Part shown: positions 51,956 to 56,584 of the stretch, in pieces
Position numbering within the stretch: position 1 is the first letter of the stretch
How the letters are laid out: the number at the start of each line of letters is the position of its first letter
Origin: Escherichia phage I29
Strand: one strand, 5' to 3'
Sequence record: ON286975
Length of the DNA stretch: 64,000 nucleotides
Notes under the pieces: generated by a model
Seen by the model: the letters and a program-made list of their open reading frames with translations, nothing else
Databases searched by the model: none
What the model was told of the DNA's origin: nothing
Made by a program: the position numbers and the translations under genes

Positions 51956-52234
51956 ATGAGCTGCGAAAAATCTTTTTTCATCATCATTTACGGTAAGGAT
52001 AACTGCCCACATTGTGTCAGAGCAAAAGAATTTGCAATCAGCAAAGGTCTGCCTTTTGTATATAAGACACTTGGCGAGGGCTACACAAAAGAAGAGCTTA
52101 TTGAGAAGTGTAGTCCAATCGTCCCCCGAACGTTGCCGCAGATCTTCTTAGAAAGCGATCTTGACAGTATCCATATAGGCGGTGCCGACGATTTCATCTC
52201 TTTTGTTAAGAATGGTTTTGGAGAGAAAAAGTGA
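51956..52234 (+). CDS. glutaredoxin/NrdH-like redoxin
   Basis: 92 aa; CPHC active site (IIYGKDNCPHCVRAKEF). Confidence 0.7.
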   Translation: MSCEKSFFIIIYGKDNCPHCVRAKEFAISKGLPFVYKTLGEGYTKEELIEKCSPIVPRTLPQIFLESDLDSIHIGGADDFISFVKNGFGEKK

Positions 52235-54369
52235 AAGTTGTAAAACGGGACGGTAGAGAAGAGTTCTATAACGGAATTAAGGTGATCAAGGCGGCAGAGT
52301 CCGCCTTACTTGAGTCTGGACATACTGAAGAAGAAGCTTACCGGATCGCTTGTGCGGTTAATGAAGTTGTTGCTAACAATCTGCCAACCGACCAGTGCAC
52401 GATCTCTGTAAAAAATATCCATATCCTTGTTGAAGATGCTCTTATGGATATGGGTTTAAAATGTGCAGCCAGAGAATACATCCAGTATAGACAGACAAGA
52501 GATAATAACAGAGAGGCAGGTGGAAAACTGCTTGCAGATATTAGTGGCTTCTTGGATCGAACTTGTGATGAATTTACAAAAGAAAACGCAAATAAGCCCA
52601 CTAATCATGTACACACTCATCGTGACCTGCTTGCAGGCATCCTTAGCAAACACCTTGCATCAACACAGATCCTGCCAGACCGTGTCTCCGAAGAGCACAA
52701 TAAAGGCTTCATCCATGTGCATGATCTTGACTACTTGATCAGTCCGTTAACAAACTGTTGTTTGGTAAATTATCCAGATATGCTGGAAAACGGATTCAAC
52801 ATTGGTAACGCCCATGTCAGTAAGCCGAAGTCAATAGGGGTTGCAACAACAATCCTTAGCCAAATCTCCAGTGCGGTAGCTAGTGCTCAATATGGTGGTC
52901 AGACTATGAGCCATATTGATCATTATCTGGCACAGTATGCTGAAGCGACCTATGAGAAGAACCTTAAATTTTGCCAGGAACATTGGTTGCCAGATGCTGA
53001 GACCGTTGCAATGCAAATGACAGATAAAGACGTGTTTGACAGCATGCAGACTTTGCTCTATCAAATCAATACGTTAACCTCTGTCAACGGGCAAACTCCA
53101 TTCATCACATTAAGTTTAGGACTGGATACCTCGGTCTTTGGTAGAATGATTACCAAAAATTACTTGAAAGTCCACAAAATGGGTCTTGGTGAAGAACGGA
53201 TCACACCTGTGTTCCCTAAAGTGCTGTTCTTCCTAGAAGAGGGTGTCAACATGAGCCCTAGAGATCCTAACTATGATTTGAAACGATTAGCTCTGGAATG
53301 CTGTGCAGAACGTATCTATCCTGACTTCGTATCTGTACCACTAAATAGAAAAGTGACAGGCTCGACAGATGGCAAAGTAACGAGCATGGGTTGCCGGAGT
53401 TTTCTTAGCAAATACAATGACTTGGAAACAGGCGAGGAGAAATACCTTGGCAGATTTAACTTAGGCGTTGTTAGCCTTAACCTGCCAATGATTGCGGCAA
53501 AAGCTAAGACGGAAGGTGTTGATTTCTTTGCAGTTCTTGACGAATACTTAGATCTTGCATACGAGGCTCACCTTGTAAGGGTTAACCGTCTAAAAGGAAC
53601 AAAGGCAGGGCAGAACCCCATCATGTGGTGTGAAGGCGCTCTTGCTCGCCTGGATCCTGAAGAAAGTATTGATAAACTCTTCTATGACGGGTACGCTTCC
53701 ATCAGCATTGGGTACATTGGTGTGTATGAAACCTGTCAGATTTTGGGCAGAGAAGGTGACAAGGCTTTAGCTCTTGGAATCCTTCAGCACATGAGAGATG
53801 CTTGTGAGCGATACAAGAAGGAAAGTAGACTAGCATTTAGCTTGTACGGCACTCCTTCTGAGAGTCTATGCTATAAAGCTGCAACCTGTCTGGATCGTGA
53901 ATATCCAGAAGTGTTAAAGCACGAGCATGAATATCTCACCAACAGTTTCCATCAGCCAGTATGGATCAATAGCTCTCCTTTTGATAAGTGGGAGTATGAG
54001 GAAGGTTTTGCTATGATCTCCTCCGGTGGCAACATCGGATACGTAGAGACACCTAACCTGAAAAACAACCTTGATGCTTTAGAGGCTCTTGTTGACTTCG
54101 GGTATAAACACATTATGTATTTTGGTATTAACCAACCTGTGGATAAATGTCTCAAGTGTGGTTTCTCTGGTGAGTTCAGTGCAACAGCTAAAGGGTTCTG
54201 CTGCCCTGCGTGCGGATGCCACGATGAACAATATATCTCAGTGATCCGAAGAGTGTCTGGCTATCTCTCCAGCCCGAACAGTAGGCCGTATAACACAGGT
54301 AAACAAGCAGAGGTTATCGAACGTGTTAAACATGTTGGGAATGTAGACTGTTGTCCGTTGAGTAAATAA
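52231..54369 (+). CDS. nrdD: anaerobic ribonucleoside-triphosphate reductase
   Basis: 712 aa; N-terminal ATP-cone, C-terminal Zn-ribbon CLKCGFSG...CCPACGCHD and glycyl-radical-type RVSGY. Confidence 0.85.
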   Translation: MKVVKRDGREEFYNGIKVIKAAESALLESGHTEEEAYRIACAVNEVVANNLPTDQCTISVKNIHILVEDALMDMGLKCAAREYIQYRQTRDNNREAGGKLLADISGFLDRTCDEFTKENANKPTNHVHTHRDLLAGILSKHLASTQILPDRVSEEHNKGFIHVHDLDYLISPLTNCCLVNYPDMLENGFNIGNAHVSKPKSIGVATTILSQISSAVASAQYGGQTMSHIDHYLAQYAEATYEKNLKFCQEHWLPDAETVAMQMTDKDVFDSMQTLLYQINTLTSVNGQTPFITLSLGLDTSVFGRMITKNYLKVHKMGLGEERITPVFPKVLFFLEEGVNMSPRDPNYDLKRLALECCAERIYPDFVSVPLNRKVTGSTDGKVTSMGCRSFLSKYNDLETGEEKYLGRFNLGVVSLNLPMIAAKAKTEGVDFFAVLDEYLDLAYEAHLVRVNRLKGTKAGQNPIMWCEGALARLDPEESIDKLFYDGYASISIGYIGVYETCQILGREGDKALALGILQHMRDACERYKKESRLAFSLYGTPSESLCYKAATCLDREYPEVLKHEHEYLTNSFHQPVWINSSPFDKWEYEEGFAMISSGGNIGYVETPNLKNNLDALEALVDFGYKHIMYFGINQPVDKCLKCGFSGEFSATAKGFCCPACGCHDEQYISVIRRVSGYLSSPNSRPYNTGKQAEVIERVKHVGNVDCCPLSK

Positions 54370-54380
54370 GGAAAGAGGTG

Positions 54381-54419
54381 GAGAGCAAGGATGCTCTCAT
54401 TTTTTTTTTTTTTGTTTTT
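54381..54419 (+). terminator. strong intrinsic terminator after nrdD
   Basis: GAGAGCA-AGGA-TGCTCTC 7-bp stem followed by a run of about 20 T. Confidence 0.75.
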
Positions 54420-54420
54420 A

Positions 54421-54449
54421 TTGACTTCTATTCCTCTTTTCTATAGTAT
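54421..54449 (+). promoter_or_regulatory. sigma70-like promoter (TTGACT-17-TAGTAT)
   Basis: TTGACT 54421-54426, TAGTAT 54444-54449, upstream of 54488 gene. Confidence 0.4.
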
Positions 54450-54487
54450 GCAATATAAAGTGAATAGCGGAAGGGTCTGGTCTGGTA

Positions 54488-55420
54488 ATGAGAAGACTAA
54501 CAACCGAAGAGTTTATAGAAAAAGCTCAGACTATACATGGTGACAAATATGATTACTTCAAAGTGGAGTATAAAAACAACAAGACACCTGTGTGTATAAT
54601 TTGTCCTGAGCACGGTGAGTTCTGGCAAACCCCTGTGGCACATGCTTTCAAGAATCATGGTTGTCCAAGGTGTGGTGGGTCAGCGAAAAAGAACACTGAA
54701 GAGTTCATAAAAGAGGCTATGGCTGTTCATGGGGACAAGTACGATTACTCATTAGTCAAATATGCGAACATGAGAACGCCTGTAAAAATTGTTTGCCCTG
54801 AACACGGTGTGTTTGAACAATACCCTGAAAACCACTTATACCAAAGAAACGGCTGCCCAGAGTGCTATGACTTAAGACGTGGGCAAAGTCAAGCGTTAAC
54901 CCATAAGGAGCATGCTGCAATTATCCACAAAGCCAACCCAGACATAGAAATATTAGAGAAAATTGCCAATGATAACACAAAAGTGCAATGTAGGTGCAAA
55001 ATTTGTGGGTATAAGTGGTCTGCTAAACCTAATAACCTAAAAAGTGGTCGTGGCTGCTGTAAATGCGCACAAAATGGATTCTTATCTCATGAGTACGGTA
55101 AACTCTACATTATGGTTGATGACTTAGAAGTGCCAACACTTATGAAAATCGGTGTATGCGTTAAAATGCACAGGAGGAAAAATGAGGTGCTTAACAGTGC
55201 TCGTAAATCTGGCGCAGGTGTCCACACTCTTCACGTAGTAAAAACATGGAGCGGATCAACTCAAAACATGGTAGATTTAGAAAAATCTGTGCATAAGGCC
55301 TTGAGCAAGTATAAAATAAACTTTCCTGTAAAATTTGACGGTAGCACTGAGTTTTTCTACTACAGGCCTGAAGTGTTTGACACGGTAGAAGAGGTATACA
55401 AGAAGATTTGTGGTAAATGA
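54488..55420 (+). CDS. homing-endonuclease-like protein (repeated Zn-finger modules plus T5orf172/GIY-YIG-like C-terminal domain)
   Basis: 310 aa; three repeats of HGDKYDY..V.Y.N..TPV.I.CPEHG.F.Q.P..H....GCP.C; C-terminal GKLYIMVDD...KIGVCVK...VHTLHVV...GSTEFF. Inserted between nrdD and nrdG with own terminator/promoter. Confidence 0.45.
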   Translation: MRRLTTEEFIEKAQTIHGDKYDYFKVEYKNNKTPVCIICPEHGEFWQTPVAHAFKNHGCPRCGGSAKKNTEEFIKEAMAVHGDKYDYSLVKYANMRTPVKIVCPEHGVFEQYPENHLYQRNGCPECYDLRRGQSQALTHKEHAAIIHKANPDIEILEKIANDNTKVQCRCKICGYKWSAKPNNLKSGRGCCKCAQNGFLSHEYGKLYIMVDDLEVPTLMKIGVCVKMHRRKNEVLNSARKSGAGVHTLHVVKTWSGSTQNMVDLEKSVHKALSKYKINFPVKFDGSTEFFYYRPEVFDTVEEVYKKICGK

Positions 55421-55472
55421 TTGTAGAAAGATATGCATATCTTAAACATGCTATTAACTAAGGAGGTGCAGT

Positions 55473-55589
55473 ATGTCATCAGGTATTTATAAAATTTGCA
55501 AGTGCGGCTGTAGTTGCAATCTTCGTTGGTGCAAGGCACTAGACGATTTTATTTGGCATTGCCCTAAATGTGATGCGGAGTATCTATGA
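55473..55589 (+). CDS. 38-aa Cys-rich micro-protein (zinc-ribbon-like), translationally coupled to nrdG
   Basis: Own translation MSSGIYKICKCGCSCNLRWCKALDDFIWHCPKCDAEYL; AAGGAGGT RBS 5 nt upstream; stop TGA overlaps nrdG ATG (ATGA). Below the ORF-track size cutoff. Confidence 0.45.
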   Translation: MSSGIYKICKCGCSCNLRWCKALDDFIWHCPKCDAEYL

Positions 55590-56059
55590 ACATTGTCGGA
55601 TACACAGAAATATCTTACACCGAAGGGCCAGGTATTAGAACTGCCTTGTGGGTATCTGGGTGCCCACACGCTTGCCCTGGTTGCTTTAATCAGGCATTTT
55701 GGTCAAAAGATAAGGGGAGGGAGTTCACTGAAGAAGACTTGCAAAAAATCTTGTCAGATTTAGATAACCCGTCTGTGTGCGGTATCTCTCTGCTGGGTGG
55801 AGAACCCTTAGCATACTATAATGAGCCAGATATTATTAGCCTGATGGAGAAAATTAAGGAAAAATTTGGTGACAAGAAAACTATTCTTGTATATACTGGG
55901 TTCACATTTGACCATATCTCTAGTGATGTTCTTAAACTGGCTGATATCATCATTGACGGTAAGTATGTAAAAGATTTACCAACCAAGAAACCGTTCCGAG
56001 GCAGTGATAACCAAAGAATGTTTAAAAAAGTATCAGGCGGTTGGGTTCAGGTAGACTAG
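55586..56059 (+). CDS. nrdG: anaerobic ribonucleotide reductase activating protein (radical SAM)
   Basis: 157 aa; radical-SAM cysteine motif CPHACPGC near N-terminus. Confidence 0.85.
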   Translation: MNIVGYTEISYTEGPGIRTALWVSGCPHACPGCFNQAFWSKDKGREFTEEDLQKILSDLDNPSVCGISLLGGEPLAYYNEPDIISLMEKIKEKFGDKKTILVYTGFTFDHISSDVLKLADIIIDGKYVKDLPTKKPFRGSDNQRMFKKVSGGWVQVD

Positions 56060-56062
56060 TTG

Positions 56063-56092
56063 TTGACAAAGCTTTGTTTAGATAGGTATAAT
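56063..56092 (+). promoter_or_regulatory. sigma70-like promoter (TTGACA-18-TATAAT)
   Basis: gTTGACAaagctttgtttagataggTATAATtatcg. Confidence 0.6.
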
Positions 56093-56123
56093 TATCGTAA
56101 AATGAAAGTAGAGGAGGTGCCAA

Positions 56124-56237
56124 ATGGCTAAAAAAGCCTTGAAGAAGGCGTACAAGAAAGAGATTGCGCTTGAGCTTAAGAAAAAACACAAGCGTGAAAA
56201 GAAACATCATGGAGATGAAGAGGGGGTGCAACAGTGA
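56124..56237 (+). CDS. 37-aa Lys-rich basic micro-protein (hypothetical)
   Basis: Own translation MAKKALKKAYKKEIALELKKKHKREKKHHGDEEGVQQ; GAGGAGGTG RBS; stop overlaps GTG start of next ORF. Confidence 0.3.
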   Translation: MAKKALKKAYKKEIALELKKKHKREKKHHGDEEGVQQ

Positions 56238-56584
56238 CACAAGAACGTATCGATTTGGCTAATAAGTTTGTAGATCTCATTTTGCCACGGTTAGTTACTC
56301 AACATGCAGATGCTATTTCTACTAATCTTGATGGCTTACGCCTAATGCTGAATCGCACAGATGACCCTCGTATTCGGGCTGATTTAGAAGCCTCTGCCAA
56401 CAAACTGGAAAAGTTCTTGCAAGTAGACACGCAAGAAGCCTTGCACAAGATTATGGTGGAAGGTTTCTCTAAAGAATTTACCATTAAAGAGCTTAAGGAG
56501 CTGATCCACCAAGAAGAGATGAATATCCGAGTTCAGGCTGTTGCAAGCAGCATGGAAGCGGCTATTGAAAAACTGTTGCAGTAA
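56234..56584 (+). CDS. hypothetical protein
   Basis: 116-aa ORF (GTG start). Confidence 0.4.
   Translation: MTQERIDLANKFVDLILPRLVTQHADAISTNLDGLRLMLNRTDDPRIRADLEASANKLEKFLQVDTQEALHKIMVEGFSKEFTIKELKELIHQEEMNIRVQAVASSMEAAIEKLLQ

Follow-up and report, generated by a model that had tools for sequence, protein, structure and literature searches.

Does the small Cys-rich open reading frame (ORF) that ends on the start codon of nrdG in Escherichia phage I29 encode a protein of its own, and would such a protein serve the anaerobic ribonucleotide reductase encoded around it? The stretch analysed, here called the window, comprises 64,000 nucleotides of this phage (sequence record ON286975), and the micro-ORF lies at 55473..55589 on the plus strand, between nrdD, the gene for a class III ribonucleotide reductase, and nrdG, the gene for its radical S-adenosylmethionine (SAM) activase. 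A preliminary description of the locus had suggested that the micro-ORF encodes a zinc-ribbon-like micro-protein, perhaps a metal or redox partner of the activase, or else a leader peptide enabling translation of nrdG. The explanation that we consider best, with a probability of roughly 40%, is that it is a translated gene for a 38-residue metal-binding micro-protein, coupled with nrdG in the window, whose partner would belong to the anaerobic reductase system.

Conservation of the micro-ORF and its database record

According to sequence reading and the ORF listing, the micro-ORF starts with the ATG at 55473, stops with the TGA at 55587-55589 and encodes 38 aa, MSSGIYKICKCGCSCNLRWCKALDDFIWHCPKCDAEYL. 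Its Shine-Dalgarno (SD) sequence, AAGGAGGT, was read at 55460..55467 on the same strand and is separated from the ATG by the 5-nt spacer GCAGT. Position, strand, length of 38 codons and the strong SD are as given in the preliminary description. The count of eight Cys residues made there has to be corrected, as the translation contains seven (C9, C11, C13, C15, C20, C30 and C33) in the layout CxCxCxC-x4-C ... CPKC. The length of the ORF alone is not telling, since 89 ORFs of at least 25 aa overlap the same 6-kb stretch; it stands above chance because 121 phage records and several metagenomic lineages preserve its frame, start, SD and Cys pattern, with substitutions that are overwhelmingly synonymous. 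The micro-ORF and the beginning of nrdG are overlapped by a 60-aa antisense ORF (55487-55669, minus strand), which is probably spurious, as the codon-position pattern agrees with the plus strand frame.

Shigella phage CM1 shares 99.2% identity with the window region, to which about 120 rV5-like Escherichia phages (Vequintavirus) are also close matches. The frame was found intact in 120 of 121 phage records by tblastn, the remaining one being a short record that ends inside the ORF. In one of the 120, phage Alma, the last residues are altered by an insertion of 1 nt close to the 3' end of the micro-ORF. Inspection of this sequence (L007 of our comparison, 1501-1686) shows that EYL is exchanged for a tail of 26 residues; the insertion is either a sequencing error or a tolerated variant.

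Substitution patterns were studied in a comparison set of 15 DNA alleles, all distinct, which were collected from phage records, IMG/VR, metagenomes and Logan assemblies. Over 28 core codons, the proportion of synonymous differences (pS) was 0.5-0.77, near saturation in distant pairs, and that of non-synonymous differences (pN) 0.03-0.09, with pN/pS ratios of about 0.05-0.15 and a binomial P for the excess of synonymous changes of down to 8e-7. NrdG, computed over the same genome pairs, gave a pS of 0.67-0.76 and a pN of 0.32-0.39. The variable sites are distributed over codon positions 1, 2 and 3 as 9, 4 and 20 (p=0.002), and all Cys codons switch between TGC and TGT yet stay Cys. At the protein level, variation among 29 distinct 38-aa alleles is limited to positions 3, 14, 29, 32, 34, 35 and 38, besides C20, which is Arg in one of them; the other six Cys are invariant in these alleles as well as in related forms of 41-54 aa. 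H29 is not a conserved metal ligand, since Tyr is found at this position in 8 of the 29 alleles. An SD box (AGGAGGT, AGGAG or AAGAGGT) is present in the same place in all related alleles.

Compared with the window, the distant lineages L008, L012, L020 and L021 retain 91% identity in the micro-protein core (32 aa), versus about 81% in the C-terminal 300 residues of NrdD, 48-56% in NrdG, about 51% in PhoH and 35% in the downstream 116-aa protein, no neighbouring protein compared being as well conserved as the core. These comparisons indicate that the micro-ORF is genuinely protein-coding and that purifying selection on it is unusually strong. The suggestion of a real micro-protein is strongly supported in this way; reading frame and Cys pattern, whose conservation in related phages the preliminary description had named as a check, are both maintained.

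Two length classes of the family were found, one of 38 aa in Vequintavirus and one of 41-54 aa in related but clearly different myophage lineages, where an N-terminal tail rich in Lys and Glu, disordered in the AlphaFold prediction, is present in the 53-54-aa forms. Common to both classes is the core C-K-(x)-C-G-C-x-C-N-L-R-W-C-K-x-L-D-D-F-I-W-[HY]-C-P-x-C-x-x-E-Y-L. When 1.84 billion cluster representatives were searched with a profile, two clusters came up, both of them the micro-protein family itself, and no member was found in 185,579 bacterial and archaeal genomes. Neither Pfam (at E<=1) nor NCBIfam gave a family match for the peptide, and a profile search of PDB sequences produced knuckle-level matches only. 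Scans of IMG/VR and metagenomes yielded eight further loci; leaving aside a duplicate of the genome of the podophage ACG-C91, discussed below, these are Vequintavirus-size contigs or near-identical alleles. A variant of 70 aa (P0022), located on a contig of 523 nt, runs past CPKCD into a second CxxC motif. An origin from the zinc fingers of the neighbouring homing endonuclease was considered and rejected (hhalign probability of 2%).

The existence of the ORF is not new, as it has already been catalogued. The identical peptide is deposited as "hypothetical protein" (CM1_00109 = QEG04578.1, bas49_0184 and bas53_0180) and is called "Uncharacterized protein" in UniRef (e.g. A0AAE8AYV3), NCBI and UniRef holding the identical sequence. 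PHROG family phrog_20137 matches it over the full length (residues 1-38 on positions 1-38 of 38, E=4.7e-30) and is labelled "ribonucleotide reductase". Most records have it as "hypothetical protein"; in a few the names "putative anaerobic ribonucleoside-triphosphate reductase", "ribonucleotide reductase" or "HTH-type transcriptional regulator" are used, and in those of Murica, rV5_ev and slur16 the ORF is not called; the Murica record has no coding sequence (CDS) here and a terminator annotated within the micro-ORF. No match of the peptide to Pfam NRDD, Gly_radical or Radical_SAM was found, and since homology to NrdD or NrdG is lacking, these names appear to come from adjacency. The possibility that the peptide is a reductase subunit, or originated from the zinc ribbon of NrdD, was also rejected, with a probability of 3% obtained by hhalign against the C-terminal region of NrdD. 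About 19 GenBank records of the series MG0656xx, entered as "Campylobacter phage" with Campylobacter jejuni as stated host, are 96-98% identical to the region and carry no annotation; their host assignment looks doubtful. What is new here is the strength of selection, the separability from nrdG, the transfer to an unrelated phage family and the recognition that the database names are misleading.

Position of the micro-ORF relative to nrdG

The micro-ORF is located after nrdD, or after an inserted homing endonuclease gene, and before nrdG in every Vequintavirus-like contig examined. Sequence reading of the window shows that its TGA overlaps the ATG of nrdG (55586) as ATGA at 55586..55589 on the plus strand, as had been noticed before, and that nrdG has its own SD, GGAG, at 55577..55580 (plus strand), 5 nt from the nrdG ATG and within micro-ORF codons A35-E36. 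The same ATGA is found in L006, L008, L010, L012, L015 and L021-L024, and GTGA in its place in L009; the overlap is conserved in two diverged lineages. The NrdG of this arrangement (window, L008, L012 and L021-L024, with the GTGA variant in L009) begins with MNI[VC]GY. A second arrangement is present in rV5, L016, L017 and L020, where the micro-ORF stops with TAA, 150-390 nt and other small ORFs separate it from nrdG, and NrdG begins with MNVVNIIEC. In the rV5 type it is the same 38-aa ORF, ending about 390 nt before a swapped nrdG. The GGAG of nrdG (AGAG in L021-L024) is kept in all alleles, the uncoupled ones included.

The two nrdG types of the vequintaviruses have a protein identity of 54% (window 55586-56059 versus L005, the rV5 sequence, 2002-2475). 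At the nucleotide level, window and rV5 are about 90% identical over the micro-ORF, drop to about 50% at its stop codon, remain at about 50% over the first 360 nt of nrdG and reach 80-93% in the last 110 nt. The swap spans codons 1-120 of nrdG (together with ORF115/116 in rV5), its alleles being about 50% identical and its left breakpoint being the stop codon of the micro-ORF, while the peptide is about 92-94% identical across it. Both nrdG types recur in distant lineages (L008, L012 and L021 versus L020). From the break in identity at the micro-ORF stop it follows that the micro-ORF and the nrdG body are separable modules.

In rV5-type phages, the ATGA-coupled position before nrdG is held by the 78-aa ORF116 (L005 1769-2005), a match to phrog_3249 (function unknown in PHROG) that has been given the label "putative minor capsid protein". 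In the metagenomic sequence P0009, the first 20 residues of the micro-protein are fused to the C-terminal part of rV5 ORF116, a fusion that is either a natural deletion destroying the micro-protein or an assembly artefact.

Stop/start overlaps of the AUGA type generally couple translation in phage and bacterial operons. In the window, a ribosome ending at the UGA would sit on the nrdG AUG, with the GGAG of nrdG falling within the final codons of the micro-ORF. It is therefore probable that NrdG synthesis is coupled to translation of the micro-ORF, and on the sequence such coupling is plausible. A small predicted RNA hairpin at 55553..55579 (plus strand; 9 pairs, several of them G-U) would occlude the first half of the nrdG SD. 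Its positions are paired in 92.6% of cells and one pair shows compensatory changes, with 36 of 500 shuffles scoring as high; in the folding model it could contribute to coupling by being opened by ribosomes on the micro-ORF. Phage Murica, which is devoid of the endonuclease, has a sigma-70-like promoter (TTGACA-18-CATATT) with an extended -10 (upstream TG) 30 nt before the ATG, a position that makes the micro-ORF the first cistron of a unit with nrdG. In phages of this kind, the short micro-ORF-nrdG unit would be transcribed from this promoter, and in the window, with the promoter replaced by the endonuclease cassette, the micro-ORF would be read from upstream transcripts. As to the proposal of a leader enabling nrdG translation, the coupling part of it is plausible in the window, but it is not the whole story, as the peptide is constrained and the ORF persists where it is uncoupled.

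Predicted fold, partner and rival explanations

Two AlphaFold models of the micro-protein agree on a beta-hairpin (NLRWC / DFIWHC), with the CPKC knuckle and then a short third strand following it. Strands are predicted at residues 16-20 and 25-30, between two Cys knuckles, the first of which is the N-terminal CxCxCxC (CxxCxCxC in the 41-54-aa forms) and the second the invariant CPKC (C30, C33); taken together, this would be a fold of the zinc-ribbon type. Among PDB structures, the top Foldseek matches are without exception zinc ribbons (RPB9, a NUDIX N-terminal ribbon, ZifS and HVO_0758), with TM values of 0.6-0.74 and an rmsd of 1.1-2.0 A, and the IWHCPKC stretch matches the zinc knuckle of eL43. 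The pLDDT values of 67 and 65 are of low confidence, the alignment being shallow (Neff of about 1.2), and the best Foldseek E-value of 0.63 is not significant. Hence the earlier term zinc-ribbon-like has modest support from the two knuckles, the predicted hairpin with its third strand and the nature of the top matches, but none from pLDDT or E-values. A zinc-ribbon-type fold is our best guess from these models, and the micro-protein would probably bind metal, presumably zinc. Three of its Cys are beyond the four that a zinc ribbon needs.

We propose that the peptide acts as a protein and not as a mere leader, forming a tiny domain round a metal and against a conserved partner. Nearly every residue of the 32-aa core is under purifying selection, as would be expected of a domain packed on both, and binding of a conserved partner would be the best reading of this pattern. 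That the partner is the anaerobic ribonucleotide-reductase system is a tentative assignment, somewhat short of even chances, of which a minor part goes to the version with the peptide as redox donor. As a guess, the highly conserved NrdD, or its host equivalent, is favoured over the variable N-terminal two-thirds of NrdG. The link with the reductase is suggested by the persistent position across lineages, by the promoter common with nrdG and by NrdD being the most conserved neighbour. It is a rather doubtful extension of this proposal that the micro-protein, as a metal-binding Cys7 peptide, would be a hitherto unrecognised third component of a phage class III ribonucleotide-reductase system and would tune or protect glycyl-radical activation during infection. 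It might then dock on the glycyl-radical/zinc-ribbon end of phage or host NrdD, or pass electrons to NrdG; such a role, if true, would explain the top conservation in the locus and the synthesis in step with NrdG.

Several observations weigh against this explanation as a whole or against its reductase link. Besides the low confidence of the fold, nrdG has an SD of its own, which weakens the link to the reductase, and the micro-ORF is uncoupled and apart from nrdG in rV5-type phages and L020. On sequence comparison, no co-variation of the peptide is seen with the two allele types of NrdG, including the part that holds the iron-sulfur cluster. No annotated counterpart was found in other phages with nrdD and nrdG (the T4-like phages examined, Certrevirus CB7 and Felixounavirus), and no Cys-rich micro-ORF before nrdG is evident from the annotations of Felixounavirus, Slopekvirus and Clostridium phages, the upstream ORFs of which were not translated. 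In the literature on rV5-like phages, neither expression data (ribosome profiling, proteomics) nor a description of the ORF were found. Moreover, the SP6-like podophage vB_EcoP_ACG-C91 (Vectrevirus) contains an unannotated copy, MSVFKICKCGCRCNLRWCKALDDVIWYCPKCNTEYL, which is 77% identical over residues 4-38 and lies between nucleotide-kinase and DNA-ligase genes with an ATGA overlap onto the ligase; no nrdD or nrdG homologue was seen in the 6 kb examined, the whole genome not having been scanned. The start of this ligase gene, ATGAATATCT, has the same ten bases as the nrdG start in L012, from which we infer a microhomology-mediated acquisition from a vequintavirus-like donor. The same slot of vectreviruses is filled in K1E by an unrelated 38-aa CxxC...CxxC ribbon (L013 799-915) and in vB_EcoP_B by an unrelated 57-aa ORF (L014 799-972), both of which overlap the ligase start by 4 nt, and the small ORFs in this slot seem to behave as interchangeable cassettes. 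An origin from the K1E slot protein was tried as well and rejected, with an hhalign probability of 38% confined to the CPxC knuckle (7-8 columns). Regarding the radical-SAM activase itself, the partnership suggested in the preliminary description is somewhat disfavoured by a peptide that is conserved despite the nrdG swap and by the copy before the ligase.

A real zinc-ribbon micro-protein unrelated to ribonucleotide reduction would accommodate much of this. It would be an early accessory protein on a host target, with a role in host takeover, counter-defence or general DNA metabolism, and would owe its place between nrdD and nrdG to descent; we take this to be a serious possibility, if one held tentatively. 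The ligase-coupled copy with no nrdD or nrdG nearby, the exchangeable and unrelated ORFs of K1E and vB_EcoP_B, the indifference of the peptide to a module swap that breaks exactly at its stop codon and the lack of annotated counterparts in the other nrdDG-carrying phages examined all speak for it, and a constant host partner would explain a conservation above that of any phage neighbour. It is more difficult to reconcile with the finding that at least four lineages with saturated synonymous sites have the micro-ORF in the same position directly upstream of the nrdG unit, kept despite adjoining endonuclease insertions and module swaps, and with the predicted promoter common with nrdG in relatives lacking the endonuclease. 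Furthermore, ACG-C91 is a single record, too little to demonstrate selection after the transfer.

An improbable alternative is a redox or iron-binding partner of NrdG, that is, a mini-rubredoxin or Fe-S peptide that reduces the [4Fe-4S] cluster of the activase, replacing host flavodoxin or working alongside it. The surplus of conserved Cys over those of a plain zinc ribbon, the rubredoxin-like knuckles CKDCG and W-x-CPxC of the 53-54-aa forms and a synthesis immediately before NrdG, probably in fixed proportion, would suit such a partner. However, neither rubredoxin (PF00301) nor any other Pfam or NCBIfam model is matched, the knuckle motifs being only partly present. Rubredoxins have the knuckles CxxCG ... 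CPxCG about 29 residues apart, versus about 19 in the peptide. There is also no co-variation with the two N-terminal modules of NrdG, which hold the cluster-binding loop, the peptide occurs without NrdG in the stretch of ACG-C91, and the identity of the metal cannot be read from sequence. A pure leader, the translation of which opens the ribosome-binding site of nrdG while the peptide itself is irrelevant, would agree with an nrdG SD placed inside the ORF by an overlap conserved in several lineages, and with a hairpin that can pair with part of this SD in most alleles. Yet the hairpin covariation is weak, folding of the region does not exceed that of shuffled sequence (z = -0.11), and the ORF is retained far upstream of nrdG with its TAA in rV5, L016, L017 and L020 and attached to a ligase gene in ACG-C91. 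The low pN against saturated synonymous sites largely refutes this explanation, which we consider very improbable. Still less probable is a precursor of a natural product like the SCIFF/ranthipeptides or sactipeptides, in which the neighbouring radical-SAM enzyme would modify the Cys-rich peptide. Such systems are classically laid out as a small Cys-rich ORF with translational coupling to a radical-SAM gene, but here the neighbour is a 157-aa NrdG-type activase with Fer4_12 and Radical_SAM only, with no SPASM/twitch, standing beside its substrate NrdD. NCBIfam, SCIFF models included, does not match the peptide, which in the rV5 and ACG-C91 layouts is away from any radical-SAM gene and which is predicted to form a compact ribbon, not a leader plus core. 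Equally remote is a chance ORF over an intergenic regulatory region, such as the intrinsic terminator that the Murica record places within the ORF instead of a CDS. A weak terminator-like hairpin does exist at 55526-55542, but it is short, contains many G-U pairs and is not preserved in L008. The region has no Rfam match and a folding energy no better than that of shuffles, and codon-position pattern, pN/pS and the start, SD and frame conserved across the 121 records speak for a gene; as far as sequence analysis reaches, the comparative data refute this explanation.

Proteins of less than 50 residues are often missed or mislabelled, and the present one is absent from several annotations. Its tight constraint and its movement between unrelated phage families make it a good candidate for experiments. 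If it acts on the anaerobic reductase or the activase, it would be a new accessory factor for a well-studied radical enzyme system; if its target is in the host, a compact 32-residue binding module would be worth identifying. What is gained at present is a corrected annotation and a clear target for experiments, and no new mechanism.

Neighbouring genes and comparison with known systems

Upstream of the micro-ORF, nrdD (52231..54369, plus strand), assigned by its translation and the annotation of relatives, encodes the class III reductase, the product of which has its own C-terminal zinc ribbon and the glycyl-radical motif RRVSGY. Downstream, nrdG (55586..56059, plus strand) was identified by Fer4_12 (E=9e-43), Radical_SAM and the annotation of relatives. 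The free-standing homing-endonuclease gene between nrdD and the micro-ORF (54488..55420, plus strand) encodes Pfam DUF723/treble-clef zinc fingers and T5orf172 and matches the phrog_681 endonuclease (E=4e-65). It is part of a cassette (54381-55460) which contains, in addition to this ORF, a terminator-like hairpin (54381-54398) with a T-run and a promoter-like site (54421-54449). Most vequintaviruses lack the cassette, and their homology to the window restarts at about 55461; its right edge is the SD of the micro-ORF, and it takes the place of the sigma-70-like promoter of relatives. The homing endonuclease is context only and does not form part of the micro-protein unit. A related DUF723 gene is located at the same spot in the distant contig L009. 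NrdD ends with ...KHVGNVDCCPLSK in the window (54300-54369) and with ...KHYGSCGC in rV5 (L005 1380-1439), a difference perhaps left by co-conversion when the endonuclease was inserted next to it.

A second conserved micro-ORF was observed in the window region 56063-56237. It encodes 37 aa, is Lys-rich (MAKKALKKAYKKEIALELKKKHKREKKHHGDEEGVQQ) and matches phrog_7670 (E=8e-20). A perfect TTGACA-18-TATAAT promoter (56063-56092) and the SD GAGGAGGT precede it, and it ends in a GTGA overlap with the next ORF (56234-56584), the start codon of which is GTG.

Among known systems, the locus resembles AUGA-coupled operons in that the stop of the micro-ORF overlaps the nrdG start and the nrdG SD lies inside the micro-ORF. 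It departs from this model in that the micro-ORF itself encodes a strongly constrained protein and in that coupling is evolutionarily dispensable, rV5-type phages and L020 being without it. The K1E ribbon (AQY55013.1) is similar to the micro-protein in its 38 aa, its CxxC...CxxC ribbon logic and its 4-nt overlap with a downstream enzyme gene, and it occupies exactly the slot that the copy of the micro-protein holds in ACG-C91; it differs in having four Cys versus seven and is not detectably homologous, the hhalign match covering 8 columns. RPB9/TFIIS-type ribbons, the eL43/L37ae knuckle, Thermus ZifS (8yoz) and Haloferax HVO_0758 (8q5b) are of similar size. With the RPB9/TFIIS ribbons, ZifS and HVO_0758 the micro-protein would share two Cys knuckles around a beta-hairpin and a third strand, and it is set apart from known zinc ribbons by the lack of detectable sequence homology, by its unusual CxCxCxC first knuckle and by its three extra Cys.

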